Shown here one piece after another: positions 13,542-51,020 of a stretch of 64,000 nt of DNA. The DNA comes from Azolla caroliniana (taxonomy: Eukaryota > Plantae > Polypodiophyta), in NCBI GenBank assembly GCA_043228905.1, contig JBHGNT010000022.1, positions 9,672,001 to 9,736,000 on the forward strand, written 5' to 3'. The notes under the pieces were generated by a model. That model saw only the letters and a list, made by a program, of their open reading frames with translations, had not been told where the DNA came from and ran no database searches. Made by a program: the position numbers and the translations under genes. The number at the start of each line of letters is the position of its first letter. Position 1 is the stretch's first letter.

Positions 13542-13636
13542 GGCTGCTTCTATAATAGAGCGCCCCTAAGCTCTAATTGTTAACGTTGACAATCTATGTA
13601 TGTATATATTTATATATACCAGCTCTTTGATTTTTT

Positions 13637-22714: not shown

Positions 22715-22996
22715 TACAATTCAAATTGGAACGATGACTTGGATACACAAAACTCTGTCTTTGGTTATGTGTTTCTATTTACAAAATGAGCAATAACATG
22801 AAAATCCAACAATCAAACTTTCGTAGCCCTATCAACAGAAGTTGAATTTGTAGTTGTTGCATCTGCCACTCAAGGAGTCTGCCTACAATGATTACTCATG
22901 GAAATGATTGACTTCATCACAATCTACGATCGACACCCACAAACTTTCAACTATGAATCATCTGAATCATGCATATCCCTAATCAATACCCCAAAG
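22715..22996 (+). pseudogene. Old Copia RNase H relic, part upstream of the Gypsy insertion
   Basis: Translates as NWNDDLDTQNSVFGYVF...AIT*KSNNQTFVALST.EVEFV, matching the consensus DWAGDLDTRKSTSGYVF...AISWKSKKQ..VALSTAEAEY. Confidence 0.75.
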
Positions 22997-23495
22997 TGTT
23001 AACCGTTTCTAGAGGAAACACCTTCAATGAGCCCACAGGCTATCGATATCAAGGGGTCGTGTTACGTGAAGGCTTCTTCTACACCGAGAAGACGTTAGGG
23101 GAACGGGGAGCGTACATTGGCTACAACTTGGTAGACATAGACGTAGCTAGGATTACAAGTACGGGGAGAACACACAGATGAAGGAACAGTAAGAGCGAGA
23201 TTTATATTAAATGAGAAATCTCACAATGAATACAGTACACGGCTCTTAGCCGGAAACATTCTTGTGCAGAGCTAAGCACTACTATACTAATCCTGCTAAT
23301 AATCTAGGTATATCCCCCCCTGCCGAGGTATGCAGGTCTCGGCTTATATAGTTTTCTTCTTTACACAGAGCCGAGCCGTCGGTTGATTGTGAGTCAAAAC
23401 TCGACTATTTTAGTTCTACCTATTTCCTCACCAACTTTTCTACCTATCGGCGAATTTACATATTTTGTAATTACATTTCTGGCCTATGAACAAAA
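22997..23495 (-). repeat. 3' LTR of the host Gypsy
   Basis: Direct repeat of 51026-51527; minus-strand TATATAAG near 23343-23350. Confidence 0.95.
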
Positions 23496-23623
23496 CCTAG
23501 CACGCCCGTGGGACAGGACTTTGTCCGTCGGACCCACGATTCACAAAGTGGAGGGATAACAAACAGATTTTGCCAAAATTTTACAAATTTTCCCTTTATA
23601 CAAGGAGGGCTTAAGGGTTTGTT

Positions 23624-26609
23624 TTAATCCTCTTCTAATATGCCGAGGATATCCTCGGGGGCGTGGGGTTGGTCAGGTTGTTCGGAAGGTGGGGTTGGTG
23701 ATGGGGGTTTTGCTGCCGAGTCCGGGATTGCTGTGTCTTCACGTGGGCCGTCCTCTGTTGGTTCCGGTTCAGGCAGGGTTGTGGTCGTAGTTTGTTGCTC
23801 GGGTGTCATGTGGGTGTCTGTAGGAGTGGGTCCCTCCTGTCTGGCTTCCATGGTGTTTGTTGTTGTTGGCTCTGGTTTGTGGTCATCAGTCATGGGAGCT
23901 CTGTTAGTCATGGTAGCTAGGCATTCCTCCTCGTAAGCTTCGGCTTCTAAACGGAACATCATTTGATCGTCGTTGAATTCCTATAGAATTTGCTTGATTG
24001 CCGTGGTGTGGGATTCTGCTAAGGTATGATATTCCTCGGTCAAGTCTTCATGGAGGGTCTGGATGCTTGTGTGACCCATCTTGTAGAACCCTCGGCCCTC
24101 CTTCCTTCGATTCTCGGCATCCGCGCGTAATATGTGTAGTTCAGCGGCTTGGGCTGACCATTCCTGCCATACGCGGTCGAGCGTTTCCTCGATCTTCTTG
24201 GTGAGTTGCTGACGATATTTGTTGATTAGGATCTTTATTCTAGTATCGTCCATGCTTATTTGAGCTCGGTGAGCTTCCACTTCCTCCCTTGTAGCCTTGG
24301 CGTCTTCTTGGCATTTGCTGACGAGGAGCTCAAGAGTAGCTTGGTTATCTTTTGCTTTTGTGATTACGAGCGCAATTGTTTGCTCGTAATGTTTGGTGAG
24401 CTGTGCTATAGTTTCGTCCACTTCCTTTCTCAAAGCGTCCCGTAGTCGTCCCCTGGCGACGATGCCCTCTACTTGCAACTGGTGATAAGCATAAGAAATT
24501 TGCACCCTTTGCTCTTCAGAGATCCTCCACTTTTGCATGTGTTCGTTTGCCAGTTCTTGTAATTCCCTTTGTTGACTCCGTAATTCCTGCTTGTCTGCGA
24601 ATAGCTCGCGTTCCCGTTGGCTATTCCTCTCTTCTTCCTTGATGAATCGTTCTTTGGCCTCGGTGATAGCGACCTGAAGGTTCATCACCTCTCTTTCTTG
24701 TGCTTTTAGTGCGGTCAGCTTTGCGGCCAGTGATTTGTTCTTGTAGTTGGCCAATAGTGTTGTTGTGGTTTTGTTCTGCTACCTCGACTCGAGCGATCTG
24801 GGCCTTGAGCTCGTCTCGGTAGTCACGGAGGGGAGGCCCTGTCTGGGTTGTAGTTTACCGGGGGTCCGGGGATGGGGTACCATGTCCATATGTGTAGATC
24901 TCTCCATGACAACAAGCGCTCGTGGTGTTTGCGTGGAAGCGTGCCTGGTCTGGAGGCTCGGTGTCCTGTCTACCATTAGAGATGTTACGTTGGTGGTGAC
25001 GACAATTGGCGGCACCATTTGTGTGGAGGTGTGGCTAGTTTGGGGGTGCGGGCTTTTATCTACTAGTGATGATGTCTCGCTCGTCTGTACCGAATCCGTC
25101 ATTGTGCTTGCATTGACCATGGCTACCTTGGGGTGAGCTATGTCGTCATTCTATGCTTCAGTAACGGTAGCATTCAAGCTCGGATTTGGAAGAGGGGCTG
25201 GTGATACATCCTTACTCGGGGCATGGAGGCTTAAGGGTGGTTGTTCTTGATGTTGCTGCTCCAATGATGCCAGTTTCTGCTCGGCGGCTTGCCATAGCTC
25301 AGTGGCCCGTTTGGCTGGCTGCTGTGTCGTTTTGATACATCGAGCCATCTCCGTGGCTGCCCAAGTTGTGTGGTCCAGATTTCGATATGCCTTGACTAAG
25401 GCCGTGTTTATGTCTGGTTGCTCCATGAGGAGGGAAGCATTCTATCCTTGCTTCTTCCGACCTATCTTCTGTAAGGCTCGATCCTCTTGAGGTTCGAGTT
25501 CTCCCATTAGTGCGCGTTGGATCATCTTCGTTTCCGCGTGCTCCTCGGCCATACGAGCGGCGGCAGCTACTTGGGCACGCGCGAGGAAATCCATCAACTC
25601 ATATGTTGTGCCCAGTCGAAGTAGTGCACTAAACTCGTATGCCTCTGCGGGGAGGTCTTTGTAACCGAGGACTTCTTCCTCTGATATATGTGTGGTTTGT
25701 CCATGCTCGATCCTGCCTATGTGGAGCGATGACTCTACTGGTACCATGGCCATGGAACTCGGGCTGGCATCCTTTGATTTCTAATGTTGGGTCCCGTCGA
25801 TTTCTATGGTCGACTCGCAATTGATGCGACGTTTCGTTTTCGGCTGGTCCTGTGAGTCTGGGGCCGGTGGTGTTGGCTCCTCGGCTTGTTTCCTCTTTTG
25901 TTGTCGTATGCCCGAGGGTTGCTGGTTTGTGAGGCACGGGCTCGGTTGTGGAGAGGGCATCGATGTCCTTGGTGTTTTTTGTCGTATGGTGACATCCTCA
26001 GTGATGGGCTCCTCGGCCTCATCCCATTCGACACGGGTCACTGGTAACGCCCGTTGCTTCTGTGTTTTTGGTGGGGGTGGTGCCGAGGTGGGAGTAGGAT
26101 TCCAAGTGGCCGAGGGAGGTGGAGAGGGCGAGGGGTCTTCCCATTCTTCTTGGGTTAACGCCAAAATCTTCTCCCGATGTTTCCGTGGTGGTGGTGGAGA
26201 GGTGAGGATGCGATGAGGGGAAAATGAAGGAGGTGGGTAGAGGAGCGTGAGGTAATGAGTCATCACAGGTAGCAATCGCTTACCGGATTGAAAAGACTCC
26301 AGTGTTGCACGGACTCCTTCGCCGGTGATGATTCCCCAATCGACTTTGTCGCCTTCGTACTCTCTGATGATGATGGTAGCCTTATTCTGGGGCATACTCG
26401 TGGGATTTGTATGCACAAAGGCGTATTGCATCAAAATTCGGGCGATCTCTCCAAAAGACTTGTTTGGTCCTCCGTAGGTGCGGTAAGATTTTCCCGAATT
26501 CGAATATATCCCAAAGTATTCCTTGAGGGTCGTGCGAGGAGGAATCTCGACTTCATGTTCTTCGCCTCGCGGAAGGTCAAGAGCGGTGTCGTGATGTGGC
26601 GTGCTCGAC
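23624..26609 (-). pseudogene. Extra (non gag-pol) ORF of the host Gypsy: globular N-part, Pro-rich linker, long coiled coil, acidic tail
   Basis: Six ORF-track segments share one frame and are separated only by TAG at 25781, 25442, 25151, 24779 and 23981. Confidence 0.85.
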
Positions 26610-28688
26610 AATGAGAAAAACCGGCGAAAGGGGGGGGTAAAAAATGTGCATGTGCAATGTGTGTGCACACAAAAGCGATTAATTGTGCATATGCAAAATA
26701 AAAAGGAAAAGAAAGGGTGAAAAGGAGGTATAGAAGCTCGTGCAAAAAGTAAGAGAGAGGAGAGATAAAAGGTAGAGGGGAGACAAGCTATGAATTTATA
26801 GAGAGAGAATTATATATTATATAAGAGAGAGTTAGTGGGCTAGTGGATAGTCACATTGACTATTAGCTACAGGTGCACGATTCGAATTTGGACTTACAAT
26901 GCAACGTGATTTAAGAAATTTTATTCCTTATTCATTAAAGACAAATTTGGCGACCCCCCATTCTTTTTTTCCTATAAGAGGTCGAGGGGGGCTCATTCAG
27001 GGGGACATTTTTGGGAGGAGGAGACTATCGCCAATTTTCCTTCGAAGCTCTTCATCTCCTTATTCACCACTTCTCTTTATCTCATACCCCTTCATCCCCC
27101 CATCGCCACGTGCTCGTCTTCTTCACGTCGGCACTCGAAGTGCTCGTGAGCCCAAGCTTCGTTGGTTCGACGTTGGTTCGCCCCGTTCGTCGTTGCGAGC
27201 CCATGTGCTCGCCGTTCGGGTGGTCGTGGTTCGTTGGGATTGGCATTTTGGTGGTGCTCGTGTGTTCATCTTCATCGTGTTCGGATTTGCTTTTGTCTCT
27301 AAGGGCATTTAATATTTATGTTTTGATTGAGCTTGTGGTTAACTATAAGTTGCCATTGTAAACAAAACCCTATTTTATAAAGGGTCCTCTTGTGTTGGAA
27401 TCGAACACGTATTTATCTCTTTGGTCGATATCATTCGTGTTTCTTTCTCTCCTTCTTTCTTTATTCGTGTCTTCCTTGTACGTTCGTCTGTCTTGTGACG
27501 AGGAGACCGTTCAGGCTTGCCCATGCACCTCTCCTCCTCATAAAGGCGTACGAGCATTTTGTGCGTGTGTTTGTGTCTTTTTTTTGTACATTCGGCCGTC
27601 TTGTGACGAGGGGACCGTTCGGGCTTGCCCATGCACCTCTCCTCATAAAGGCGTATGAGCATTTGTGTGTGTGTTTGTGTCTTTTTTTTTGTACGTTCGG
27701 CCGTCTTGTGACGAGGGGACCATTCGGGCTTGCCCATGCACCTCTCCTCCTCATAAAGGCGTACGAGCATTTGCGTGTGTGTTTGTGTCTTCCTTGTACG
27801 TTCGGTCGTCTTGTGACGAGGGGACCGTTCGGGCTTGCCCATGCACCTCTCCTCCTCATAAAGGCATACGAGCATTTGCGTGTGTGTTTGTGTCTTCCTT
27901 GTACGTTCGGCCGTCTTGTGACGAGGGGACTGTTCGGGCTTGCCCATGCACCTCTCCTCCTCATAAAGGCGTACGAGCATTTGTGTGTGTGTTTGTGTCT
28001 TCCTTGTACGTTCGGTCTTCTTGTGACGAGGGAGCGTTTCGGGCGTGCCCATGCACCTCTCCTCCTCATAAAGACGTACGAGCATTTTGTGCGTGTGTTT
28101 GTGTCTTCCTTGTACGTTTGGCCGTCTCGTGACGAGGGAGCGTTTCGGGCTTGCCCACGCACCTCTCCTCCTCTTAAAGGCGTACGAGCATTTTGTGCGT
28201 GTGTTTGTGTCTTCCTTGTACGTTTGGCCGTCTTGTGACGAGGGAGCGTTCGGGCCTGCCCATGCACCTCTCCTCCTCATAAAGGCGTACGAGCATTTGT
28301 GCATGTGTTTTGTGTCTTCCTCGTACGTTCAACGTCTTGTGACGAGGGAGCGTTCGGGCATGCCCATGCACCTCTCCTCCTCATAAAGACGTACGGACAT
28401 TCGTGTTTGTGTTATCGTCCCCTTGTGCATTCATGTTGCGTGCTCATCTTGCTTGTACCCGTTTGGTCACTTGGCTCGTGCGGTGATCTCGGAAGGTCGA
28501 CGAGTCATGATCAACGAGAGCCACCGGCCTCACAAAAACAAAGGGCAACTAGACCTTGCTCGGGAAGGGGTCGGGAAGTAGTATTGTCGTAAAGCAAACC
28601 TCGGGTCTTCTCTATCCCTTGAGTACTCCCTAGTCCAAGACCCCCGTGGTCTCGCCCAAGTAACAGACGTGCGCGAAACTTCGCAACA
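26610..28688 (+). mobile_element. Solo LTR (about 2.1 kb) related to the tRNA-Trp-primed Gypsy LTR at 6746-7445
   Basis: 28624-28651 matches the reverse complement of 6784-6811 at 26/28 nt. Similar termini (aatgagaaaaaccgg vs agtgagaaaatcgg; ttcgcaaca vs acgcgaca). Shared aggtcgagggg..ct.attc and ttatgttttga blocks. Near-TSD tcgac/gcgac. No PBS follows. Confidence 0.75.
27466..28411. repeat. Tandem array of 9 copies of an approximately 105-bp unit within the solo LTR
   Basis: c(t)tgtgacgag anchor at 27492, 27600, 27705, 27810, 27915, 28020, 28126, 28232 and 28336. Confidence 0.95.
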
Positions 28689-28846
28689 GCGACGCGAATC
28701 ATATTGATGGTCACTGTGTCGGGGTAGATTCTGCGTGCTATTGCTTGGGCTTCAAGATGCACTGGGGCGTCGATGACCCGTAAGTAGCCGCCCAATCCTC
28801 GTTGTTGTAGCCAAGAACGAGTTTCCTGCGATGTTGAGAGAGGCAT
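28689..28846 (-). pseudogene. Probable N-terminus of the extra ORF, cut off by the solo LTR
   Basis: ccaccATG start, MPLSTSQETRSWLQQRGLGGYL...; abuts the TSD; joining to the downstream frame needs one 1-nt frameshift. Confidence 0.55.
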
Positions 28847-29199
28847 GGTGGAATCGATGGTTTGCTGACAACGAGAGTGGGGGGGGGGGGGGGGGGGAAT
28901 GAGACGAGGACGAGTTAGAGAGATGGAAGAAGATTGTTGGGGAGGAAATCGTTGTTCTGTGAAGGGGCTATGAGGGCGAGAGAAGGCTCCTAAGAAAATT
29001 TCGTGATTTGGGGTGATTTGTTAGGTGGTTTAGGTGAGGCTAATTTAAATGCTAAAACTATTCCTAATTTTACCTAATATACAATTTTGGTGGGTAGGTC
29101 AAAATTTTACTGATGGGGGCACGTGGCCTCCTTTGTGGCGCCGTCCATGAACTGGTCCATGCCGTGAGACTCGGTGAAGGGATTATCTGGGGTATTTCC

Positions 29200-30694
29200 T
29201 TGGTAAGGTCGAAGTCGGAATCCATTTACCCAGCTTTTGACGATGTCTCTGGCAAGTGTGCCGAGTTAGAATGTGCCGTTAAACTCATCGATTATCCAGA
29301 AGGGGCCTATCCATCGGAATCGTAATTTCCCCGGCATGGCACCGAGTCGTGTTTGGAAGACGAGTACCAGTTTGCCGATGGTAAGTGCTTTCTTCGTACC
29401 TTTCCGGTGTCGATCTACGAAGGCTTTGCATTGTCGTTGTCGTTGTCGTTGTTCTAGTTGAGCCATGTTGGCCACTCGATGTTCGCTAAGTTCGAGGAGT
29501 TGTTCGAGCCGATATTGATCTAATTGGGCCTCGGGTAGCCTTTCCTTAACCTGAACTCGGAGACTCGCGACTTGGAACTCGATCGACATGACTGCTTCCA
29601 AACCAAATGCCATCCGAAAGGGGGTAGATTGAATGCTAGTTTAAAATGTGGTGCAATACGCCCATAATGCACTCTGGAGCTTGTCATCCCAATCGGTGCG
29701 GTTTTCATTGACGATCTTTTTCAGGATTGTTTGCGAAATTTTATTAGTAGATTCCACCAATCCCTTTGCCAGAGGATAGTACGGTGTACTTTTCTTATGT
29801 ACGACCGTGTAGTGTGTAGTGAGCTCCTGAATTATGTGGTTTATAAAATGCCCACCTTGGTCACTAATGAGCTCGATTGGGCATCCATAACGACACATAG
29901 ATGTTCGTAAATGAACTTTGTCGTGGATGCAGCATGTTGTCCCGTAGTGCCTTAGCCTCGACCCATTTTGTGCAATAGTCCATGGCCACGATTATATACT
30001 TGTTACCGGTGTGAGCTGCGGCTGGTTTGAAAGGTCCCACAAAATCTAACCCCCACTTTTGAAATGGTTCTAATAGGAGGATGGGTTGGTGCAGCATCCA
30101 GGCTTGCTCGGTCGGTTGTCCCATGCATTGATACAAATCACATTGTCGACAGAATTCATGAGCATCTTTTTTTGTTGTAGGCCACCATAAGCCACTCTGG
30201 CATATTTTTCTTGCCGTGGACTCTCTAGCGTAATGACCCCCTGCGATTCAATGATGTGCCTCCTGGAGGATTGCGTGTTTCTCGAATTGACGGATTGCAC
30301 GGCGCCAAATGTCGTCTGAGCCTTTGTGGTAGAGGGTGTCGGAGACCAAACAAAAGTTTCGGCTCCGGACATCTAGTCGTCTCCAAGCATCAAGGGTCAG
30401 ATGGTCGGGAGGAAGGCCGGTGCTGAGGAAATGGGTCATCTCAGTGATCCATTCATCTTCGTTTTCGTCTGGCACCATTGCGAGACTAAAAAGGGCAGCA
30501 TCGGGTAGATCATCATACATGGACTCGGCTGGTTCTTCTGACTCGAAGCGGCTCAGGTAGTCAGCTACGGCGTGTTGGACTCCGGGCCGGTGCTGGATCT
30601 AAAAATCAAACTCTTGTAGCAGGAGCATCCATCGGGCCAGGCGACCTGTGAGGGCCAATTTATTTACCAATAAGCCTCTTCTTCTATTGAAGAC
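29200..30694 (-). pseudogene. Host Gypsy integrase (disrupted) and RNase H C-terminal stub
   Basis: [47 protein letters not shown]. Confidence 0.92.
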
Positions 30695-33600
30695 TGTTGA
30701 GAATTCGACGTTGCTTATGTCCGACGCTCGGCCACAACCGAGATTCTTTTCATACACAGAAAAACAGGTAATGAAACGCGACACAAAGGGGAGAAATGGT
30801 ACACAGGAGGTTTACGTGGAAAACCCCAAAATAGGGGAAAAACCACGGCAGCCCACAGGCTGCAAAACTGTCACTATGTAGGAATATACAACAGTTTGTT
30901 CACTGAGGCAACAACCTCGTGCTCTCAGATCTTCGCCACAGGCGGCGGTTACAACAGAGGCAACGACCTCGTCTCTCTCTCACTCTCTCTGTACAGTTAC
31001 GCGCTCTCTCTTCTTCTTGCACCAACAAGGAAGAATAACAACAACAGAAAACAAACATAGCTAAAAGTTTGCTCTAAGTCATATTTATACTAATATGACT
31101 TTTCGGCTATTTACAAATGTAGCCTCGATGGGCTGCATCCGGCTCTCCGCAGTCGGGTACTCCTCATCCGGTTCATACCGGGCCTACACCATCCGGCTCT
31201 CCGCAGTCGGGTACTCCCCATCCGGTTCATACCGGGCCTACACCATCCGGCTCTCCGCAGTCGGGTACTCCCCATCCGGTTCATACCGTTTCGGCCTCGG
31301 CCGAGTTTGTTCGTCGGCACTGTTCTTCTCCCTTCCCATCCGGAGGGACTTGTCTCCCAACAAACTCCCCCTTCATTCCGGCATGGGGTGTCTTTCCAGC
31401 CCGATCCTCTTCCAGCATGCGTCCAGCTTGTCGGGTGTCAGCACTTTGGTCAGCATATCTGACCCGTTCTCAGCCGTGTGGATCTTCGTCAGTGCGAACT
31501 CCTGGTCATCTACCCTTTCCCGGATCCAGTGATACCTCCGCTGGATATGCTTCGTCCGAGAATGGTAGGCCGCATTCTTAGCAAGGTGGATGGCACTTTG
31601 ACTGTCGCAGTAGAGTCGGTATTCCTCTTGCCGGATACCGAGCTCTCCGATGAAGTCCTTCATCCATAATATTTCCTTGCCGGCTTCTACAGTCGCCATG
31701 TACTCCGCCTCTGTGGTTGACAATGCAACCGTCTTCTGCAGCCTCGACTGCCACGAAACAGCTCCCCCTGCATATGTCATCACATACCCGGATGTAGACT
31801 GGCTGGTATCCACATCAGCCGACATGTCCGAATCGGTGAAACCATCCAGTTGAGGTTTCCCAGAGCCGAATCGGAGACACATATTTGAAGTGCCCTTCAA
31901 ATACCGGAGTATCCATTTGACCGCATTCCAATGCTCCTTGCCGGGATTACTCATGAACCGGCTCACCACTCCGACTGCGTATCCAATGTCCGGTCGGGTA
32001 CAAACCATTGCATACATCAAGCTCCCGACGGCAGAGGCATATGGGATCTTCATCATATCTGCCTTCTCTCCTTTTGTCTTCGGGCTTTGCTTGCCGGACA
32101 ACTTGCAGTTTGCCGGAAGTGTCGATCCGACCGGTTTTGCATCTGACATGTTGAACCGGTGAAGCACCTTTGTCACATACTTCTCCTGTGACAGCCATAA
32201 TTGCTTCACTGACCGGTCCCGAATGATGTGCATCCCCAACATCTGTCTTGCCGGACCCAAGTCTTTCATTGAGAAGGTCCGGTTGAGAGCCTTCTTCAGC
32301 ATCCGTATTTTGCCTTGGTCTCGTCCGACGATCAACATGTCATCCACGTACAGAAGAAGTATCAGGAAGTCCCCTCCTTCGAACTTCTTCACGAACACGC
32401 AGTGATCGGCCTGCGTCTTATGGTACCCTTGATCGGTCATGAAGGAGTCGAACTTCCGATACCATTGCCGGGGAGCCTGCTTCGGTCCGTACAGGCTCTT
32501 CTTCAACCGGCATACCAGGTGCTCCTTCCCTTTCTCCACAAATCCTTCCGGTTGCTGCATGTAGATTTCCTCTTCGAGGTCGCCGTGGAGGAATGTCGTC
32601 TTCACGTCCAGCTGCTCTACCTCGAGATCCATGCTTGCTGCTATACTCAGCACCGTCCGGATGGAGGTCATCTTTACTACCGGGGCGAATATTTCGTCGA
32701 AGTCCACGCCCTTCTTCTGCTGGAACCCCTTCACCACGATCCTGGCTTTGTATCTCGGGGGGTTGCCGACATCTCCCGGTTTCAACTTGAACACCCACTT
32801 GTTTCGGAGTGCCCGCTTTCCTTTCGGTAGCTCCACCAATTCGTACGTATGGTTCTCATGCAGGGAATCCATCTCATCCTGCATGGCACTTAACCATTTT
32901 CCGTTGTGGGTGTCTTCCTTCGCTTCTTCGAAGCTTTCCGGCTCCCCCTCATCGATCAGCAGGACATGCTCTGCATCCGGAAATCTCCGGGGCGCCCTTC
33001 TCTCTCTGAGAGGATATCTACGTCTTCGGGCTTCGGTAACCGGTTCCTCCATTTGCTCTTCATCCGAATCCGATTCGGGGTCTTGACCGGTTCCGGTCTC
33101 AGCTTCCTCTACTTCTTCTTCTGCCGGTTCGGTATCCTCACCGTAACCGGCTGGTTCCTCGAGTGCTAACCGGTCTCTTGCCGGTTGGGTCTGCTCATTG
33201 TAGAGTCTATCCTTACCGGTCAACTCGGAGTTCATTACCTTCTTCTCCGACTCCCAGTCGGCGAGCGTCTTGTCCTCCATGAAGATAATATCTCGACTCC
33301 GGAATACCTTCTTGTCGACCGGGTCCCACACTCGGTAGCCGAACTCATCGTCACCGTAACCGAGGAATATGCATGGCCGGGTCTTTGGATCTAACTTTCC
33401 TCTCCGGTCCTTTGCTACATGCACGTACGTGAGACACCCGAACACCCTCAGATGCCGGTAGGACACTTCCTTACCGGTCCATACTCTCTGTGGCGTGTCT
33501 CCGTCCAAGGGTACTGAGGGTGATCTGTTTATCACATATGTCGCCGTCGACAGTGCCTCAGCCCAAAACTTCTTGGGTAGTTTTGCATGCGCTAGCATAC

Positions 33601-36133
33601 TCCGGACCCTCTCCATTATGGTCCGGTTTATCCTCTCGGCCAGTCCGTTTAGTTCTGGCGTCTTCGGCACGGTAAATTCGAGCCGGATTCCCTTCGAGCG
33701 GCAGTACTCCTCGAACTGCCCCCGGTACTCTCCTCCGTTATCTGCTCGAACCGCCTTCAGCTTCCGGCCGGTTTCTCTTTCCACTCTCGTGTGGAGCTCT
33801 TTGAAGACTGATAACACCTGATCCTTCGTCTTCAGCGGTGTGGCCCATAGCTTCCGGCTGTGGTCATCTATGAACGTCACGAAGTACTGCGCTCCGGCAT
33901 GTGACTTCGTGTCTACTTGACAAACATCCGTATGCACCAACTCCAGTGGTGCATTACGTCTCATCGGTGGCCTTGGTCGGAAGGAGGTCCGGTTCTGCTT
34001 ACCGGCCAGACAATCAGTGCACTTCTCTAAGTGCACGTTCTTCACTGGAATGAGGTTGTCGTCTGCAAGCCTCTTCATCCCCTTCTCACTCATGTGACAT
34101 AGCCTCTTGTGCCACAGCTCACCGGAAGTGTCGGAAGCCACGTTCACTTCTTCCGGACATAACCAGGCATTCATCAGGTACAATGTGTTTACCTTCCGGG
34201 CCCGAGCCACAATCAGGCTCCCTTTGTTGAACTTCATGACACCGTTCCGGATGCTACCCGTGTAGCCTTCATCATCCAGCCGACCGGCTGATATCAGGTT
34301 CAGACGAACTTCCGGAACGTGTCGGACATCCTTCAACAGCAACTTGCATCCGGTTGGTGTTGTCAGCCACACGTCTCCTATGCCGACAATTCGGCATGTT
34401 CCTTCATTCCCCATCCGGACACAGCCGTGATCACCGGCTGAGTAGGATGAGAAGCATTTTCGATCCGGGGTAAGGTGGAACGACGCTCTGGAGTCTACCA
34501 CCCAGGTCATCTCGTCGTCGGCATGGTTTATCTCACTCTCCTCGGTGATGAGCATCAACTCCTCTTCACTTGCCGCAATTGCCGTCGTTCCCTTCCGGTC
34601 CGGCCCCCTCTGGTCTTTACCGTTCCGGTCTGTACCGTTCCGGTTCGGGGTTTGCTTCGAATCGGTACCGTCGGTTTCCTTGTCTTTACGGAAATGCCGA
34701 CATTTCTTTTGGAAGTGTCCCGGCTTGCCGCAATAGAAGCAAGTAGGCCTCCCCCTTGACTTTGACCATGTCCCCGACTTCTCCCGGTTCTGGAGACTAC
34801 GGTTTCTATGTCTTCCGCGTTCCGATTCGGTAAGGAGCGCTTTGGAGTCGGAGCTCGTATCTTTGTCTTTCCGACGAGCCTCCTCATCTAGCAAGCTCGA
34901 CTTTACTCTTGCTAGGGATAACTGTTTTCCTTCCGGCCCGGCGTTGCTCAAAGTGACAACCAACGTCTCCCAGCTATCCGGGAGGGAACCGAGCAGGAGT
35001 AGCGCTAGGACCTCATCGGCAAGAGGTATTTCCAATGACGTTGCATGGTGGATCAGCCCCTGGAAGGCATTCATATGCTCCGCCATGCTGGAGCCATCTT
35101 GGTACCGGAGTCTTACTAGCTTCCGGAATACCGACACCTGATTGACAGCATTTTTGTTCTGGAACATTATGCCGATCTTCTCCCAGAGCTCATGAGCCTT
35201 GCTCTCTTCATTGAAGTTGTTGTACAGGCTCATGTCGATGAAGCACCGTATGTACGCCGTTGTCTTCATGTGCATCACCTCCCATATCGCGGCGTCGATT
35301 TTGTCCGGTCTCTTGTCCCCGAACTGAACCGGCAGCCAGAGGTCTTTAACCACGAGCATGTCCCTCATCTTCGACTTCCACACTGAATAGTTGGAGCCGG
35401 TGAGCTTGAACATGCCGCCAAACGATTCGTCCATTTTCTGTGTCGATTTCGCTCTGATACCAATTGTTGAGAATTCGACGTTCCTTATGTCCGACGCTCG
35501 GCCACAACCGAGATTCTTTTCATACACAGAAAAACAGGTAATGAAACGCGACACAAAGGGGAGAAATGGTACACAGGAGGTTTACGTGGAAAACCCCAAA
35601 ATAGGGGAAAAACCACGGCAGCCCACAGGCTGCAAAACTGTCACTATGTAGGAATATACAACAGTTTGTTCACTGAGGCAACGACCTCGTCCTCTCAGAT
35701 CTTCGCCACAGGCGGCGGTTACAACAGAGGCAACGACCTCGTCTCTCTCTCACTCTCTCTGTACAGTTACGCGCTCTCTCTTCTTCTTGCACCAACAAGG
35801 AAGAATAACAACAACAGAAAACAAACATAGCTAAAAGTTTGCCCTAAGTCATATTTATACTAATATGACTTTTCGGCTATTTACAAATGTAGCCTCGATG
35901 GGCTCCATCCGGCTCTCCGCAGTCGGGTACTCCTCATCCAGTTTATACCGGGCCTACAACCATCCGGCTCTCCGCAGTCGGGTACTCCCCATCCGGTTCA
36001 TACCGGGCCTACACCATCCGGCTCTCCGCATTCGGGTACTCCCCATCCGGTTCATACCGTTTCGGCCTCGGCCGAGTTTGTTCGTCGGCACTGTTCTTCT
36101 CCCTTCCCATCCGGAGGGACCTGTCTCCCAACA
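30695..36133 (-). mobile_element. Full-length Tnt1/Tork-like Ty1/copia element (Copia-1)
   Basis: LTRs 30695-31362 and 35465-36133 (about 98.5%). TSD AAGAC at 30690-30694 and 36134-36138. Met PBS tggtatcagagc at 35451-35462. PPT gaagggggagtt at 31363-31374. Confidence 0.97.
31373..35434 (-). CDS. Uninterrupted Copia gag-pol polyprotein (about 1353 aa from MDESFGG)
   Basis: Zn knuckle CFYCGKPGHFQKKC, protease WVVDSRAS, integrase WHKRLCH...DVC...DNGGE...NGLAER, RT YVDD, RNase H DSD...EAEY...DSQ. Confidence 0.95.
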   Translation of the reverse strand: MDESFGGMFKLTGSNYSVWKSKMRDMLVVKDLWLPVQFGDKRPDKIDAAIWEVMHMKTTAYIRCFIDMSLYNNFNEESKAHELWEKIGIMFQNKNAVNQVSVFRKLVRLRYQDGSSMAEHMNAFQGLIHHATSLEIPLADEVLALLLLGSLPDSWETLVVTLSNAGPEGKQLSLARVKSSLLDEEARRKDKDTSSDSKALLTESERGRHRNRSLQNREKSGTWSKSRGRPTCFYCGKPGHFQKKCRHFRKDKETDGTDSKQTPNRNGTDRNGKDQRGPDRKGTTAIAASEEELMLITEESEINHADDEMTWVVDSRASFHLTPDRKCFSSYSAGDHGCVRMGNEGTCRIVGIGDVWLTTPTGCKLLLKDVRHVPEVRLNLISAGRLDDEGYTGSIRNGVMKFNKGSLIVARARKVNTLYLMNAWLCPEEVNVASDTSGELWHKRLCHMSEKGMKRLADDNLIPVKNVHLEKCTDCLAGKQNRTSFRPRPPMRRNAPLELVHTDVCQVDTKSHAGAQYFVTFIDDHSRKLWATPLKTKDQVLSVFKELHTRVERETGRKLKAVRADNGGEYRGQFEEYCRSKGIRLEFTVPKTPELNGLAERINRTIMERVRSMLAHAKLPKKFWAEALSTATYVINRSPSVPLDGDTPQRVWTGKEVSYRHLRVFGCLTYVHVAKDRRGKLDPKTRPCIFLGYGDDEFGYRVWDPVDKKVFRSRDIIFMEDKTLADWESEKKVMNSELTGKDRLYNEQTQPARDRLALEEPAGYGEDTEPAEEEVEEAETGTGQDPESDSDEEQMEEPVTEARRRRYPLRERRAPRRFPDAEHVLLIDEGEPESFEEAKEDTHNGKWLSAMQDEMDSLHENHTYELVELPKGKRALRNKWVFKLKPGDVGNPPRYKARIVVKGFQQKKGVDFDEIFAPVVKMTSIRTVLSIAASMDLEVEQLDVKTTFLHGDLEEEIYMQQPEGFVEKGKEHLVCRLKKSLYGPKQAPRQWYRKFDSFMTDQGYHKTQADHCVFVKKFEGGDFLILLLYVDDMLIVGRDQGKIRMLKKALNRTFSMKDLGPARQMLGMHIIRDRSVKQLWLSQEKYVTKVLHRFNMSDAKPVGSTLPANCKLSGKQSPKTKGEKADMMKIPYASAVGSLMYAMVCTRPDIGYAVGVVSRFMSNPGKEHWNAVKWILRYLKGTSNMCLRFGSGKPQLDGFTDSDMSADVDTSQSTSGYVMTYAGGAVSWQSRLQKTVALSTTEAEYMATVEAGKEILWMKDFIGELGIRQEEYRLYCDSQSAIHLAKNAAYHSRTKHIQRRYHWIRERVDDQEFALTKIHTAENGSDMLTKVLTPDKLDACWKRIGLERHPMPE

Positions 36134-36855
36134 AAGACCACTGAAATGGGAGTCTATGCATAGCCGCGTGCAATGGAGACGCGAAATCGGCTAGGTGTCG
36201 TAACATCCGGCTATGCCATCTGATTTATCCCAGGAATCGGCTGAGGGCCTTTGCGGTAGAGGGCGTGGGAGCGTTCAGAATGTCTTGCACTTTATCCGGG
36301 TCCATGGCGATACCTTCCTGACAGACTATGTGCCCGAGCAGGTTGCCGCTTGTCACCAAGAACGCGCATTTTGCCGGATTTAAGCTCAACCGAACTTGTC
36401 GACATCGATCGAGACAGAGGCATAACCGGGTCATATGCTCCAACCGCTGGCCATACACGGCAAATTCATCGAGGAAAACTTGCATGAACTCCAGGATATA
36501 CTCGTTGAAAATCTCGGTGATGATGCGTTGGAATGTGGTCGGTGCCGTTTTTAATCTGAACATCATTACCTTGGCCACAAAGACACCCCAGTCCGTGACA
36601 AACGCCATTTTCTCCTGATCTTCCGGGTGCATTCTAATTTGATTATAGCCATTGAACCCATCTAGAAAATTGTAGCATTCATGACTAGTCACCATGTCGA
36701 GGACATTATCCATGAACGGGAGAGGAAACCCATCCGTGACTGTCGCGACATTGAGTTTGCGGTAATCAACGCAAACACGGATTTTCCCGTTTTTCTTGGG
36801 GACGACGACGATTGGGCTGAACCATGTGGCTCGTTTACTGGGCGTATAAAACCTA
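36134..36855 (-). pseudogene. Host Gypsy reverse transcriptase core
   Basis: WFSPIVVVPKKNGKIRVCVDYRKLN, LDGFNGYNQI, VFLDE (degenerate YxDD). Confidence 0.93.
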
Positions 36856-37101
36856 TGTAAACAATTACTTGCGGAAGCATTAGAAAATAGAGAAAGCAGA
36901 GAATACACAAAGTACACGGGAGAGACAAAGAGAGCAGAACACAAAAGCTATATTCAAAACAATATAAACACTCTGTACATACAACTATGCTCAGTAGCAC
37001 TACTTATACAAGTCCTCATGGGACTGACAAAAGTATCGCGTACTTCAATGCTCACACGAGCATTTGACACTTACTACGAGACTATAACTGCCTAGTAGTC
37101 T

Positions 37102-40100
37102 TGTTGAGAGACAAGCTCAACATCGGCTGGATCGGCTGAAGAAGCCGAGGACTGGATCGGTTGGGACCAATCGGCTAGGCCGAGTGCGTAAACCGGGAGG
37201 TCGTAAGGAAAGATATTCCGTAAGGAATATATTTGGGAGTTAGTGTAGGAGCTCTTGATGAGCATTGAAGTACTGTCAGTACTTCGGTCAGTCCTTCTAG
37301 GGCTTGTATAAAAGTGTTCACTGAGCACGTCTTATGTACAGACTGAGTATTATTGTTGAATATAGTTTTTTGTGTTTCTCTCTCTGTCTCTCCCGCGTAT
37401 ACCGTGTAAGCTCAAGCTCTCCATTAAACCTGAGTTTCCTCTCTTCTGTTCGGTCTTCATACTTGCTTCCGCACGCTACTTTCTACATGGTATCAGAGTG
37501 CGAGGGTTGAGAACCTCTCTGCAGCCGACACAGCTTGACGAAGAAGAATGAGAAGAACGATGGATAGAGGCATGGCGAGCTCGCTTCCAACAGAGAAGCT
37601 CGACAGAACCAACTACGCGTCTTGGTCCTACAAGATGCACCAGTACCTGCTCGGGCACGGCTACTGGAGTTATGTCGAAGGAGCTAATGACGCGGCACCC
37701 GAATCGACACACAAAGACTTCCCGTCGTGGGAGCAATCGGCGAGCAGGGTATTGTACTGCTTCGCGTCGTGTGTGGGCGAACAGCTATTGAGCTATGTTC
37801 GGGATGCAAAGACGCCGAAGGGTGCGTGGGAAAATCTAAATAAGATTTTCGCTGCGAGAACCACAGCTAGGAAGCTTCAGCTCTGACAGGAGTTGAGCAA
37901 CCTACGACAACGCGACTTGTCGGTGCCGGACTATACCTCGAAGATCAAGGATATCTGCGACTCCCTCGCCTCCATAAAGGTGAACATCGAGGAGAGCGAG
38001 ATGGTCCAAATCTATCTCAGAGGTTTGGCGTCGAAGTTCGGAGCGTTCTGAACGGCTGTGTGTACCCGGGAGAATACGCCGTCCTTTTTCGACTTACAGT
38101 CAATGCTCCTGGTAGAGGAGAACCACGCGGGTGCGTCTACAAGCACGCACACCGATAGCAGAATGTTGTACACGGAGGGAGATAGGCCTCGTGGACGTGG
38201 AGGACGAGGCGAGTCGACACGCAATGGAGGCGGCCGACGAGATCAAAGAAGGCACCGAAGTGATGCCGACAGCAACTCCGGATCCTCCGGAAACAGGGGG
38301 AGTCGAAGCGATGAGAACCGGCAAGGGAAGTCCATCGCGGAGTGCTGTTACTGTGGCAAGAAAGGCCACAAGGAAAGTGAGTGCTGGAAGAAGCGCGCTG
38401 ATTCGGAGAGAAATGGCTCCAGAAATACTGACAAGGGAAATCGACAGCGATCGCACTACGCCGAAGACTCCGGGAGAGCCGGAGAAGGGACTGCCTTCGT
38501 GTCGAGACACGAAGCAAACTCAATGAAACAGAGCACCCCGAGATCGGACGAGGTATGGTACGTAGACTCCGGCGCGTCAAACCACATGACGAGCCATAAG
38601 GAGTGGTTCTCGTACCTTGAAAAACTGATACAACCAGGAGTAGTCGCAACAGGAGACGACACTCTGCATCCGATCGCGAATGTCGGAGAAGTTCCCCTTA
38701 GCCATATCGGGCAGAAAGGGAAACTCATGAATGTGTTGCACGTTCCGACAATCACGAAGAACTTGGTCTCAGTCGGACAGATCGTCGACCAAGGGATGGA
38801 GGTTCGGTTTACACACCTCGGGTGCTTCATTGAGGAAGAAGGCCGTGTGATTGCGCAAAGGCGTAGAGACGGGAGGATGTTCATCCTCGACTCCACTGAC
38901 GGCGGCACCGCAATGTTCGCGAAGGGACAAAAGACCGAGTCGGACATCGACTTGTGGCACAAGCGGATAGGCCACGTCAACCACCAACGGCTTCAAGATC
39001 TGCAATCGAAACAAGTAGTGTTCGGATTGCCCAAATTTAGTGGCCGAAAGGCACAAATTTGTGAAGCCTGCCAGCTCGGGAAGCAACACCGACTTCCCTC
39101 TCCCAAGAGCGAAACCGGAGCCGGAACAAACTCGACCTTATACACTCCGATGTGTGGGGGCCGGCACAAAACGTTAGTCTTGGTGGGAGCCGATATTTCG
39201 TCTCCTTCATCGACGACCACACGCGGCACACGTGGATCTACCTCATTGAGAGGAAGAGCGAAGTCTTCGACTGTTTCCGGGACCTCAAAGGGTTCGTGGA
39301 AGCCGAAACGGGACGAAAGATCAAGTGCCTGCGGTCGGATGGCGGGAAAGAGTATTTTTCCGGTCAATTCAACGGTTATCTACAACAAATGGGAATTCGG
39401 CGCGAATTCAGTTGTAGATACACGCCGGAGCAGAACGGCGTGGCCGAGAGAAAGAATCGGTCAGTTGTGGAAGCGGCACGGGCAATGCTGGAGGAGAAGA
39501 GCTTGCCCAAGTTCTACTGGGCTGAGGCGGTAAGGACCATGGTATACATCCAGAACCGGATCGGAGACAAAGTGTCGGCGCACGAGCTATATTTCGGAAC
39601 GAAGCCGAACTTGCGACACTTGAGGGTGTTCGGTAGCATTGCGTATGTGCATATACCGAAGGAGAAAAGGAGGAAGCTGGACGCAAAGGCCGAGAAATGC
39701 ATCTTGGTTGGTTACTCGGACGAGCAAAAGGGTTATAAGTGCTATAACCCTTGCACCAAACAAGCGCGTGTCAACCGCGACGTTGTGTTTGACGAGTCCG
39801 CGTCCTGGTACCTGCCCCCGACTACGAACCTCGACTCCAATCCGAGCTCTAACGATGAGGTCAGCGAGGCCGAGATGCCTCCGGATGAGCCCGAAATCGA
39901 GACCCGCGAAGAGAGTCCGATTTCACTCCGTTTAAGTGGACCGATTGGACGACTGAGTCGGTACGACCAGTCCGATGAAGAGCCGGAGAGTAGTGGAGAC
40001 TCGGCCGTGCATTGCCCGCGCAGGAAGCCGAGGAGACGGCTTACGCGCAAAGAGAAAGGGAAGAAAAAGGTATCGGATTCCGGCACGAAAAGGAACGAGT

Positions 40101-42743
40101 CATACCGACGCGAGTCCGACTCCGAGGGAACCGGTGACAGGTCTTTAAAGATGAAGACCACGTCGACCAAGAAGGCCTCGACATTGGCTAATGTGAGATT
40201 ACGCTGATCTACCCGCCAAAAGAACCCAGTTGTGTGGTTCGGTTACAACGAGTACATGGCGCATCATTATGCGTACATGACCCGTGTAGCAGAAGTGCGT
40301 GAGCCGGAGAGCTACGCAGAAGCGGCTAAAGACGCGAATTGGCGTGCCGCGATGGAGGAAGAGATGCACGCATTGGCGGAGAACGAGACCTGGGACCTGG
40401 TTGACACACCGAAGGGTGTGAAGCCGATCGGGTGTAGATGGGTGTACAAAGTCAAGTACAACATCGATGGCTCGGTCAACCGGTACAAGGCTCGACTAGT
40501 GGCAAAGGGTTACGCGCAGAAACACGGCATCGACTACGATGAGACGTTTGCGCCGGTCGCGAAAATGACGATCGTCCGTGTTTTGCTCACAGTAGCCGCG
40601 GCCAAGGGGTGGCACCTACATCAGATGGATGTAAAGAATGCGTTCCTGCAAGGTGACCTTGAGGAACAGGTGTACATGGTACAGCCCCCCGGATTTCACT
40701 CTGGAACGAACTCCTCGGCAATATGCCGACTGAAGAAGTCCCTTTACGGACTGAAGCAAGCCCCGCGTGCCTGGAACGTGAAGATCACGCAGCAACTGCG
40801 TCGGTTGGGTTTCGTCACGTCAAAATCGAACTCTTCCCTGTTCATCCGGAAAGGTCGACTCGGACCGGTTAGTATTTTACTGTATGTTGATGACTTGGTC
40901 ATCACCGGCGCCGACCTAGGTGACATCGACCGCGTGAAGCTCCAGCTTGCGGCATCGTTCGACATGAAGAATCTGGGGGACCTTCATTACTTCCTCGGGA
41001 TCGAAGTGATCCGTACCCCCGAAGGCATATTGATCAGCCAACGTCATTACGTGCTAAGTATGCTCTTCAAACTCGGGATGGCCGACTGTAAGTCCATCTT
41101 GACTCCTCTGGACAGAACCGTCAAGCTTCGTCCCGATACGGGAAAGGTATGCGACCCGACGAGGTTCCGACAAATTGTCGGTAGCCTCATATACTTGACC
41201 ATCAGCCGACCCGACCTCAGTTATCCGGTCGGAGTGATCAGTCAGTTCATGGTGCGACCTACCGAGGAGCACCTTCAGTGTGCGCAACGCGTACTTCGGT
41301 ACGTAAGCGGCACTAAGGACCGCGGACTGCTATATCGGACCGGTGCAGCCGCGCAGTTAGTCGGCTACACCGATGCTGATTGGGCTGGCAACGCCGCCAA
41401 TCGCCGATCCACGTATGGATACGTGTTCTCCCTCGGGAGTGCCGCGATCGCATGGAGCAATAAGAAGCAGCCGACAATTGCACTGTCGAGCACCGAAGCC
41501 GAGTACCGAGGAGCGGTTGTCGCGACATGCGAAGCCATATGGTTGAAGCGGCTTCTTAAGGACCTGCAAAAGGAGGTGTCAAATCCGACGACGATCTACT
41601 GCGACAACCTCAGCAGCATCGATCTCGCGAAAAACCGTGTTTTCCACGCACGGACCAAGCACATTGAGGTGCACTACCATTTCGTCCGTGAGCGTGTCCT
41701 TTCCGGTGAAGTCGAACTTCAGTACGTTCCGACGGATCCGCAGACTATCGACATCTTCACCAAGCTTCTTGGTCTAGACAAGTTGCGGCAATTCTCAGGT
41801 GCGCTCGGGTTGCGTCACCTTGACGTGCCGAACTTGAGGGGGAGAACAGTCCCGAACAACCAAGCAAGGCAGCAAGAAAGGAGCGGACACCGCGACACCG
41901 AGTCGGTTGACAAGTTTGACATCGGATCGGCTGAAGAAGCCGAGGGCGGACCCGCAGAAAAATCCGGAAGCGGACAGAAGGGGAGCAACCGAAGGAGAGA
42001 GCCGAAGCCAATCACGCATGGGGAAGATGACGCCATCGAAGGCGAGAAGACCGAAGACGAGTTGGAGACAGCCAACTCGGACGAGAGCGAAAACCGATCG
42101 GAGGTAGCCGAGTCGGTTCGGATGTTTGATTCAGACACGCTGAATCAACCGAGGCCCAAGCGGAAGAAAAGGCAGCAGAAGAAGCGTCAACACCGCAACA
42201 ACAGAAGAGTTGATAAGGGCCACATGAGCAGACAAGCTGACCGGAAGGGTCGAAGCGCGTGGAGTCAAACAGGTCGAGGAGCGCGAGCGAGGCGAGAAGC
42301 CAGGAGGAACCGGTGCCCGAGGATCCCGAAGAGCCTCAAGTTGAGCTTGAGGGGGAGTGTTGAGAGACAAGCTCAACATCGGCTGGATCGGCTGAAGAAG
42401 CCGAGGACTGGATCGGTTGGGACCAATCGGCTAGGCCAAGTGCGTAAACCGGGAGGTCATTAGGAAAGATATTCCGTAAGGAATATATTTGGGAGTTAGT
42501 GTAGGAGCTCTTGATGAGCATTGAAGTACTGTCAGTACTTCGGTCAGTCCTTCTAGGGCTTGTATAAAAGTGTTCACTGAGCACGTCTTATGTACAGACT
42601 GAGTATTATTGTTGAATATAGTTTTTTGTGTTTCTCTCTCTGTCTCTCCCGCGTATACCGTGTAAGCTCAAGCTCTCCATTAAACCTGAGCTTCCTCTCT
42701 TCTATTCGGTCTTCATACTTGCTTCCGCACATTACTTTCTACA
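37102..42743 (+). mobile_element. Ty1/copia element (Copia-3), same family as Copia-2, inserted in its 3' LTR
   Basis: 386-bp LTRs 37102-37487 and 42358-42743 (about 98%). TSD AGTCT at 37097-37101 and 42744-42748. PBS tggtatcagagt at 37488; PPT 42349-42357. Confidence 0.97.
37560..42463 (+). pseudogene. Copia-3 gag-pol with three TGA stops and one frameshift
   Basis: EKLDRTNYASW gag, CYCGKKGHKESEC, WYVDSGAS, LWHKRIGH, YVDD, RNase H. TGA at 37884, 38049 and 40205; frameshift near 39100. Confidence 0.93.
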
Positions 42744-45700: not shown

Positions 45701-48183
45701 GTTCTGGATGTAGACAGCCGTTCAGACTGCCTCCGCCCAATAGAATTTGGGCATGCTCTTCTCCTCCAGCATTGCCCTTGCTGCATCAATAAGCGACTGG
45801 TTCTTCCTTTCAGCAACACCGTTCTGTTGCGGTGTGTATCTGCAGCTGAACTCTCGTTGAATTCCCTTTTGCCGCAAATAACTGTTGAGTTGGCCGGAAA
45901 AGTATTCTTTTCCGCCATCCGACCGCAGGCATTTGATCTTCCTCTCCGATTCCCGTTCCACCATGCTTTGGAGACTCCGGAAACACTCAAAGACTTCACT
46001 CTTCCGCTCAATGAGGTAGATCCATGTGTGCCGCGTATAGTCGTCGATGAAGGAAATGAAATATCAACTCCCGCCAAGACTAACATTCTATGCCGGTCCC
46101 CACACATCCGAATGGATAAGGTCGAGCTTGTTACGGCTCCAGTTACATTCGGTAGGGAATGGAAGCCGGTGTTGCTTCCCGAGTTGGCAGGCTTCACATA
46201 CTTGGGCCTTCCGGCCGTTGAACTTCGTCAAACCAAAAACAACTTGTTTCGTTTGCAGGTCTTGAAGCCTCCGGTAATTGACGTGGCCTATCCGCTTGTG
46301 CCACAGGTCGATGTCCGATTCGACCTTTTGTCCTTTTGCAAACAGAGCGGTGCCGACGTCATTGGTGTCGAGGATAAACATCCTCCCGTCTCTACGCCCT
46401 TGCGCAATAATTTGGCCCTCTTCCTCGATGAAGCACCCGAGGTGCGTAAACCGCACCTGCATCCCTTGGTCGACGATCTGTTCGACCGACACCAGGTTCT
46501 TCGTGATTGTCGGAATGTGTAATACGTTCATCAGCTTCCCCTTCTGTCCGACGTGGCTCAAAGGGACTTCTCCGATCTGCACGATTGGGTGAGGAGTGTC
46601 GTCTCCGGTTTTGACTACTCCTGGTTGATCCGGTTTCTCCAAAAAGGAGAACCACTCTTTGTGGCTCGTCATGTGGTTCGATACACTGGAATCAACATAC
46701 CACACTTCCTCCGAATTGGAAGTGGTCTTCTTCATCGAGTTCGCCTCGTGCTTCATCACCAAGGTTGGCCCGTTACCGTTCTTGGATCCTCCCGATCCCT
46801 TCGCGTAGTGCGAGCTTTGCCAGCCATCCTTGCCGGCCTTGCTGGATCCAGATTTGTCCGAATCGGCGCGTTTTCTCTAGCACTCGCTTTCTCTGTGGCC
46901 CTTCTTGCCACAGTACCAACATTCCGTTGCAGATTTGTCTTCCCGGACACCGGCACCGCCTTGACTTCCCCTGCCTATGGAAGTTCCGGAACTGCTGTCG
47001 GCACGTTCTTTGTGCCTTCGTTCTTGCTCTTGCCGGCCGCCTCCATTGCGTGTCAACCTGCCTCGTCCACCACACCCACGGGACCGATCCACCTTTGTGT
47101 ACAACATCTGGTTGTCAGTGGTTCTCCTCTACAAGGAGCATCGACTGTAAGTCAAAGAATGACGGCGTATTCTCCCTTGTACATACTGCCGTTCGGAAAG
47201 CTCTAAACTTAGACGCCAGGCCCCCAAGACAGACCTATACCATCTCGTCTTCCTCTACGATAACGTTGATGGAGGCAAGCGAGTCACAGATCTCTTTGAT
47301 CCGGGCCGTGTAATCCGCCACCGAGATATCCTTCTGTCGAACATTGCTTAACTCCTATCAAAGTTGCAGCTTTCGGGTTGTGGTACTTGCAGCGAAAACC
47401 TTCTTCAGGTTTCCCCAAGCCTCTTTCGGCGTCTTGGCGTCTCGGATGTGACTCAGTAGCTGGTCTCCGACACTGGACGCGAAGTAGTACATCACTCTAC
47501 TTGCCGATTGTTCCCACACTGGGAACTCCTTATGTGCCGCATCAGTTGCTGTTTCGTTGGCTCCTTCAACGAAACTCCAGTAGCCATGCCCAAGCAGGTA
47601 CTGGTGCATCTTGTACAACCAAGATGCGTAGTTGGATCTATCGAGTTTCTCCACAGGGAGCGAGCTAGCCATTCCTCTATCCATCACTTCTCTATTTGTT
47701 GTTCTTACGACCTGTTAGGGTTTGCTTGCAAGCGTTTGTCGGTTGCAAAGGTTCTCAACCCTCGCACTCTGATACCATGTAAATGATTACTTGCAGAAGC
47801 ATTAGAAAACAGAGAAAGCAGAGAATACACAGAGTACACAGGAGAGACAGAGAGAGCAGAACGCAAAAGCTATATTCAAAACAATATAAACACTTTGTAC
47901 ATATAACTATGCTCAGTAGCACTATTTATACAAGTCCTCATGGAACTGACAAAAGTACCGCGTACTTCAATGCTCACACGAGCATCTGACACTTACTACG
48001 AGACTATAACTGCCTAGTAGTCTAAACTAATACTAGGCTTCCGGTTACCTATTGGATCCGGCTAACCGGCTCCCCAACTCTGTTGCTTGCCGGCTCGGTT
48101 GCTCACCGGCTAACCGATCCGTCTCGCTCACCGGCTCAGGCTTATCCAGCCGATCCGGCTCCAGTTGAGCTTGCCACTCAACA

Positions 48184-51007: not shown

Positions 51008-51020
51008 ACCGAGCGTGCCA
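51008..51020 (-). promoter_or_regulatory. PBS of the host Gypsy, tRNA-Arg(UCU) type
   Basis: TGGCACGCTCGGT lies 5 nt inside the 5' LTR and resembles the Tat-type PBS TGGCACGCCC(A/G)GTGGGAC. Confidence 0.7.

Follow-up and report, generated by a model that had tools for sequence, protein, structure and literature searches.

The window analysed here, a stretch of 64,000 nucleotides from the genome of Azolla caroliniana, contains on its minus strand a Ty3/gypsy element that is broken and split by nested copia insertions. The 5' LTR is located at 51026..51527 and the 3' LTR at 22997..23495, the latter beginning with TT here and with TG in most sisters. The same target site duplication (TSD), CTTTG, is found at both ends (right copy at 22992..22996, left copy at 51528..51532), and the two LTRs differ at 33 of 498 aligned sites. 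A primer-binding site (PBS) for tRNA-Arg(UCU), 13 nt in size with one mismatch, is located at 51008..51020 after a 5-nt spacer (51025-51021). The coding segments, all on the minus strand, consist of gag and protease up to the start of the reverse transcriptase (RT) gene (48184..50703, broken), an RT piece (RVT_1) between nested copia insertions (36117..36851), the end of RNase H with the integrase (29116..30670, broken) and the pieces of a 3' extra ORF (23822..28843), broken up by a 105-bp tandem repeat of about 9-10 units at ~27371-28413. With tblastn, no match was obtained in the window copy for about 100 residues of the RNase H core, and a Pfam search with the 3' extra ORF of a sister returned no match. 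Once the nested elements are excluded, the element is about 11.7 kb in size. A reading in the wrong direction was ruled out, since gag-pol, the extra ORF and a TATA-like box all run towards the 3' motif described below.

One nested copia element (30695..36135, minus strand) serves as an internal control, and two further ones, with approximate outer borders, occupy 36855..48183; all three have ordinary polypurine tracts (PPTs). Positions 37238-47997, in the gypsy RT gene, hold two related copia elements in opposite orientation that are 73% alike over 4.6 kb. Elsewhere in the window are two ordinary land-plant genes, an ORF for a PPR protein with an E motif (58753-60834, plus strand) and a senescence-regulator ORF (12321-13565, minus strand).

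Immediately upstream of the 3' LTR, positions 23514-23498 of the minus strand read GTCCCACGGGCGTGCTA, followed by GG (23497-23496) and then by the LTR. When compared with the last 18 nt of the host tRNA-Arg(UCU), CCA counted, this segment (23498..23514, tRNA positions 59-76 with one base missing) matched at 16 of 18 positions with one gap. When the 200 nt upstream were shuffled 20,000 times, no shuffle scored above 14 matches. The similarity to the tRNA continues on the 5' side, where 23540-23528 resembles tRNA positions 46-58, the 5' side of the T arm. The two parts are split between positions 58 and 59 by a 13-nt insert (23527-23515), which together with flanking bases forms a 7-bp hairpin with one bulge (23512..23529). 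As a whole, the motif, hereafter the mimic, is a sense copy of tRNA-Arg(UCU) positions 46-76. The CCA position reads CTA in the window copy and CCA in 23 of 29 sisters. No purine tract touches the 3' LTR of the window copy: purine runs reach at most 4 nt within the final 60 nt, and the sole 8-nt run lies about 90-100 nt upstream. The preliminary description had named the tRNA, and the tRNA-Arg(UCU) genes that we recovered from the host genome bear out the tRNA end that it gave; its statements that no purine run occupies the plus-strand site and that the motif ends 2 nt from the LTR proved correct as well. Tandem tRNA-gene arrays were also seen in this genome (L031-L032, L038-L039, L048-L050), with genes for Lys-UUU, including Asn-anticodon variants, Ile-UAU and Arg-UCU.

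The feature is real and lineage-wide. Among 30 loci chosen by the internal extra ORF, 29 reach the LTR, and all 29 carry the motif while none has a PPT, which rules out a one-off recombinant; the idea that most sisters might have a normal PPT, raised in the preliminary description, does not hold. A search with the junction itself found the motif at 30 of 30 loci, a set biased by the query. A pattern of 14-17 nt gave 2,061 matches in the genome and none for the reversed control, the invariance of the 3' 17 nt of the mimic being partly built into such search patterns. Thirty of the pattern loci were cut out and contained 28 hairpin-type mimics, one PBS and one chance match, and the 28 mimics stand before several different LTR starts. 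In metagenome contigs we obtained at least 124 matches, and 77 of the 78 loci examined showed the same motif; metagenome LTRs that matched those of this genome did so mostly at 70-90%. The motif recurs across many families with dissimilar LTRs. Viral contigs yielded neither a motif match nor an RT relative.

Other gypsy clades served as a control. A normal PPT was present in 29 of 40 stretches at Pfam RT_RNaseH matches, the remaining 11 being unscorable (7 without an LTR pair and 4 in which the repeat was wrong or partial). In the Azolla genome, the short chromovirus-like elements that we sampled also keep the PPT. In two young groups of short gypsy elements (L406-L429 and L391-L405), the paired LTRs are almost identical, the PPT is ordinary and a tRNA PBS is not obvious; these are possibly self-priming, Tcn1-like elements.

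The tRNA named by the mimic is not always the one named by the PBS. Among the sisters of the window element, the PBS is of the Arg(UCU) type and 13 nt in size, extended to 18 nt at 2 of 30 loci (L085, L098). In the families L137, L153, L156 and C2, the PBS instead matches tRNA-Arg(UCG) genes over 13 nt and the mimic is still of the Arg(UCU) type. The predicted duplex between mimic and PBS amounts to -19 to -26 kcal/mol where the PBS is of the Arg(UCU) type and to just -9 to -11 kcal/mol where it is of the Arg(UCG) type. Since the Arg(UCG)-PBS families keep an Arg(UCU) mimic, pairing between the mimic and the element's own PBS cannot be the general role of the motif. Among the PBS copies, those of 18 nt (L211-L240) vary like the host Arg(UCU) isodecoders, which means that the tRNA pool serves, at least on occasion, as the template for the PBS. 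At another locus (L096; G000:C6:14084596-14086630), at least 7 head-to-tail copies of a 245-nt unit hold the LTR end, PBS and leader of the family of the window element.

We also examined covariation in the mimic using an alignment of 45 natural copies, 44 of them distinct, that represent different LTR clusters. Six of the 51 cluster representatives were left out: one chance match, three repeats of the window family and two in a shifted register. In the 44 distinct rows, two-sided changes were observed in 6 of the 7 pairs of the inner hairpin. The outer helix, which resembles the T stem, showed a two-sided change in only 1 of 5 pairs and fails on the 5' side. Over the whole structure, 31 cells had a two-sided change, compared with 9.5 in shuffles, and none of 500 shuffles reached 31, a count that is not a probability since the rows are related; slid controls were far lower. 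The sense strand is predicted to fold into one hairpin of -12 to -18 kcal/mol. For the tRNA on the minus strand, duplex prediction, with RNA parameters standing in for RNA-DNA, gave pairing in two blocks with the insert looped out. When 37 host tRNA tails were ranked by predicted duplex, with RNA parameters, without the CCA and from an incomplete set of tRNAs, Arg(UCU) came first at 4 of 5 sites, two of them from the window family; at the family L250 site it reached -30.0 against -30.9 for the best partner.

The principal evidence is provided by insertions with traces of tRNA at an LTR start. Eukaryotic tRNA genes do not encode the CCA end. Among 14 tRNA-Arg matches, 5 lacked the CCA and 9 had it, and all 9 abut a TG-type LTR border. 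We searched for junctions consisting of the true tRNA end, which contains a base absent from the mimic, a short spacer and TGT. These searches gave 12, 62, 15 and 30 overlapping matches, with none in each control, and most of the matches with a true tRNA end were PBS copies. From the set of 62, 30 and a few more were inspected as loci and the rest were judged by the spacer alone. Orientation was fixed by locating the same LTR start behind a hairpin mimic.

Eight independent, orientation-checked events were identified in which a true tRNA-Arg(UCU) end in sense orientation is joined to an LTR start, and all eight include the tRNA base that the mimic lacks. The tRNA match is 57 nt in L169-171, three tandem copies counted as one event, 56 nt in L172, 63 nt in L526, 16 nt in L180 and exactly 18 nt in the remaining four (L175/176, L177, L227 and L242). 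The family spacer of 2 or 4 nt is kept exactly in six events; L242 has the 5-nt spacer of its family with one change, and L526 has GG where the nearest family copy has AG. A further match of 64 nt (L535) is a probable ninth event. A PBS or gag-pol follows in L169, L175, L177 and L172 only, the other events lying in rearranged loci. In L169, the 5' LTR stands before an Arg(UCG) PBS, after which come gag-pol, the extra ORF, the mimic and the 3' LTR. L177, whose 18 nt match a second isodecoder exactly, has an Arg(UCG) PBS and gag-pol after the LTR, and L172 has an Arg(UCG)-type PBS there. Because the PBS of these three is of the Arg(UCG) type, their Arg(UCU) junctions cannot be flipped PBS copies.

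In L175/176, the LTR end, the PBS spacer, one T, 18 nt of tRNA, AG and the LTR start follow each other, and this order occurs twice. The junction lies within one insertion with the TSD AATAG, and the mimic of this insertion shares no more than 8 contiguous nt with the tRNA. We infer that the order is that of a circle or head-to-tail junction with the left primer still on. The reverse case is seen in L072, where the tRNA is kept on the PBS side and the left side has just the 2-nt spacer. For Arg(UCG), all three long copies bearing a CCA have PBS-type spacers of 5-6 nt. A search for the Arg(UCG) end, a spacer and TGTT found none with the start spacer of the UCG families (TG or TATG) among the 100 matches listed from a total of 123; two of the 100 had a 2-nt spacer. 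Short-read contigs compared with two of the junctions provided no independent confirmation.

Several loci were rejected as plus-strand traces or as an intermediate with both PPT and tRNA (L173, L241, L243, L488, L178, L135 and L257), since they belong to the PBS side, in a family whose PBS spacer is 2 nt in size. L525 was found to be PBS-side by the direction of gag, and L174 and L532 were kept out of the junction count. Other joins were observed at some loci. In L220, L230 and L489, a tRNA-type end links the mimic hairpin to an LTR end of the PBS side, and in L489 the extra ORF is located upstream of the joined hairpin. These joins look as if a PBS copy had been transferred onto the mimic, which would flip the internal region against the LTR. 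At three loci (L178/L529, L534 and L538), two right ends meet tail to tail; one LTR end has the spacer and a T, and the other keeps an 18-nt PBS copy. L438 (near base 94) contains a fold-back in which an LTR end with an Arg(UCG) PBS faces a longer tRNA copy with the same LTR end.

Taken together, the junctions strongly indicate that tRNA-Arg(UCU) binds at this site, and the complement of the mimic on the minus-strand DNA is most likely a second primer-binding site. We propose, with a probability of roughly 75%, that host tRNA-Arg(UCU) anneals to the minus-strand DNA and routinely primes the plus strand. According to this model, tRNA-Arg(UCU) or tRNA-Arg(UCG), depending on the family, would prime the minus strand at the PBS, and RNase H would then clear the RNA from the mimic region. 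The tRNA-Arg(UCU) would pair with the exposed DNA through positions 76-61 and, past the looped-out hairpin, through about positions 49-56, which would leave the modified A58 near the unpaired junction. Its CCA, ending where a PPT would end, would be extended by RT through the family-specific spacer of 2-5 nt into U3. RNase H, a domain of which is present in the ORF of a sister, would normally remove the plus-strand primer. Should removal fail, completion of the minus strand would copy 18 nt of the tRNA, up to a stop at m1A58, or continue further, and the tRNA-bearing copy would be integrated ahead of the 5' LTR.

The mimic has the position and spacer of a PPT, as would be expected if the element's own mimic RNA were the primer, being spared by RNase H and cut after the CCA in the manner of a non-purine PPT. 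RNase H would then reuse its cue for tRNA-DNA junctions, and the tRNA joined to LTR starts would stem from rare template switches. RT switching onto a tRNA could indeed leave the junctions that we observed, and a primer from the genome RNA with occasional switching of this kind is possible. The single predicted hairpin of the sense strand agrees with such a primer, and so does the one-base gap relative to the tRNA, which nearly every family in this genome retains, which extends the stem of that hairpin and which is unexplained if pairing alone matters. A primer of this origin predicts remnants of the mimic type, but a narrow junction scan with 16 matches (1 in the control) contained none diagnostic of the mimic and two of the tRNA type, which represent one event; the remnants in L267 and L254 are too short to tell mimic from tRNA. 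The covariation also argues against it, as two-sided changes occur in 6 of 7 pairs of the inner hairpin and in only 1 of 5 of the outer stem, which breaks on the 5' side, and in the UCG families a template switch would require that Arg(UCU) was bound here anyway. We regard the mimic RNA as the main alternative, but as an unlikely primer.

Priming by the host tRNA-Arg(UCU) also has to be weighed against readings in which the mimic has other roles. The preliminary description had offered two options, priming of both strands by tRNA or pairing of the mimic with the PBS for circularisation or self-priming. The former gained from the conservation across the family and from the tRNA at LTR starts. 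The latter, in which the mimic would serve RNA circularisation, dimerisation or minus-strand self-priming and the plus strand would start by an unmarked route, did not stand as a general role and is very improbable. It draws on the 12-17 bp predicted in families with an Arg(UCU) PBS and on the joins in L220, L230 and L489, from which it follows that a mimic can accept a PBS copy. Speaking against it are the weak pairing in the four families with an Arg(UCG) PBS, a third PBS type in the distant element L545 described below, and the PBS copies of at least 18 nt with isodecoder variation and a CCA, which imply that a real tRNA primes the minus strand. Hardly more credible is a mimic without any priming role, either as the leftover of an old tRNA capture or as a decoy or target for tRNA fragments. 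Capture would be easy, given that DNA copies of tRNA-Arg are a frequent product of this clade's RT, but a leftover would not be expected to keep its CCA at a distance of 2-5 nt from the LTR, both in L545 and among families whose LTRs are unrelated, to be left with no PPT, or to show compensatory change in the inserted hairpin.

A distant relative with the motif, L545, was found on a eukaryote-like contig inside a soil MAG. It is a full element with unrelated LTRs of 1.65 kb and a pol that is 56% identical over 1,100 aa. Its 3' end consists of a perfect hairpin that differs from that of the other families, an Arg(UCU)-like tail that ends in CCA and lacks the one-base gap, 2 nt, and the LTR. No PPT precedes the 3' LTR, and the PBS is of a third type, neither Arg(UCU) nor Arg(UCG). 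Many prokaryote genome records (L545-L586) hold eukaryote-like gypsy contigs, most likely as contamination.

The mimic elements have the features of Ty3/gypsy elements: direct LTRs with TG..CA ends, a TSD, a tRNA PBS and the order PR-RT-RH-INT, for which RT, RH and INT of a sister were identified by Pfam and the protease motif by eye. A Pfam search of the pol ORF of a sister gave no chromodomain match. A single RNase H is located directly before the integrase, and there is no additional archaeal-type RNase H as in the Tat clade (TatI-III, Ogre, Retand). With their domain order, a 3' extra ORF and neither a chromodomain nor a second RNase H, the elements appear to fit an Athila-like non-chromovirus. 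Phygy and Selgy are short, with a polyprotein that takes up the internal region, and membership there was ruled out by the size of the extra ORF, 993 aa in a sister, and by the length of about 11.7 kb. In a quick RT tree, the mimic elements grouped with L545 and three unnamed proteins (SH-aLRT 93), and this group was placed beside Riccia proteins and apart from three unlabelled rows taken as Athila-like. The named RT-RH relatives, with 43-58% identity, were from Riccia, Calypogeia, Adiantum and pine. It is quite probable that a whole plant Ty3/gypsy clade, reaching at least as far as L545, replaced the PPT with a structured second tRNA site on the minus-strand DNA, that tRNA-Arg(UCU) primes the plus strand whatever tRNA primes the minus strand, and that the genome keeps traces of primers that were not removed.

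If this is true, a tRNA bound to a DNA template can serve as a starting point for RT, the same RNase H cut is able to set both ends of the cDNA, and both strands depend on the host tRNA supply and are open to control by tRNA fragments. The lineage has been successful, with about 2,000 sites in one genome, and annotation tools that require a PPT would miss or mis-orient such elements. In the literature searched, which did not extend to subscription and older papers and was in part available as excerpts, no account of tRNA-primed plus strands was found.

An animal element offers a parallel. In one variant of the Ascaris element Tas, reportedly described by Aeby et al. in 1986, the oligopurine tract is replaced by an inverted copy of the PBS region, and another route to the second strand is said to have been proposed. 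That variant would be one animal element with an inversion of its own 5' region, whereas the motif here is structured and lineage-wide, can name a tRNA other than that of the PBS and has left genomic traces of the bound tRNA. An origin of the 3' site as an inverted copy of the element's own PBS region was rejected, since in several families the mimic points to another tRNA than the PBS does.

Priming of the plus strand from a PPT is treated as general for retroviruses and LTR retrotransposons in the available text of two papers (PMC5371799, PMC7197481). According to the former, yeast Ty3 primes its plus strand from a 12-nt purine RNA and has a bipartite PBS in the RNA, complementary to the tRNA, for the minus strand (PMC5371799). 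The elements described here share with Ty3 the order gag-PR-RT-RH-INT, direct TG..CA LTRs, a tRNA PBS and a primer site just upstream of U3, but the 3' motif has the tRNA's own sense whereas the Ty3 PBS is complementary. With Athila, Tat, Phygy and Selgy, as portrayed in the available sections of Neumann et al. (2019, PMC6317226), they have in common the lack of a chromodomain, a 3' extra ORF, tandem repeats, a 5-bp TSD and a tRNA-Arg PBS, and with Athila also the lack of an extra RNase H. For plant non-chromovirus Ty3/gypsy elements, those sections name the PPT as what is usually found at the 3' end and mention no tRNA at that site (PMC6317226). The self-priming elements Tf1 and Tcn1, in the same source, likewise depart from the usual primer scheme, but it is the minus-strand primer that they alter. 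A parallel to the junctions is seen in HIV-1, in which, according to the available text, m1A58 stops RT on the tRNA primer and read-through inserts 7-54 nt (PMC12657518). As with the tRNA-Lys3 inserts of HIV-1, integrated copies here record the primer tRNA, and the contrast between 18-nt stops and read-through is the same split that is described behind the HIV-1 PBS (PMC12657518). In HIV-1, however, the tRNA copy lies behind the PBS, whereas in the elements studied here it is also found ahead of the LTR start, in the opposite sense.
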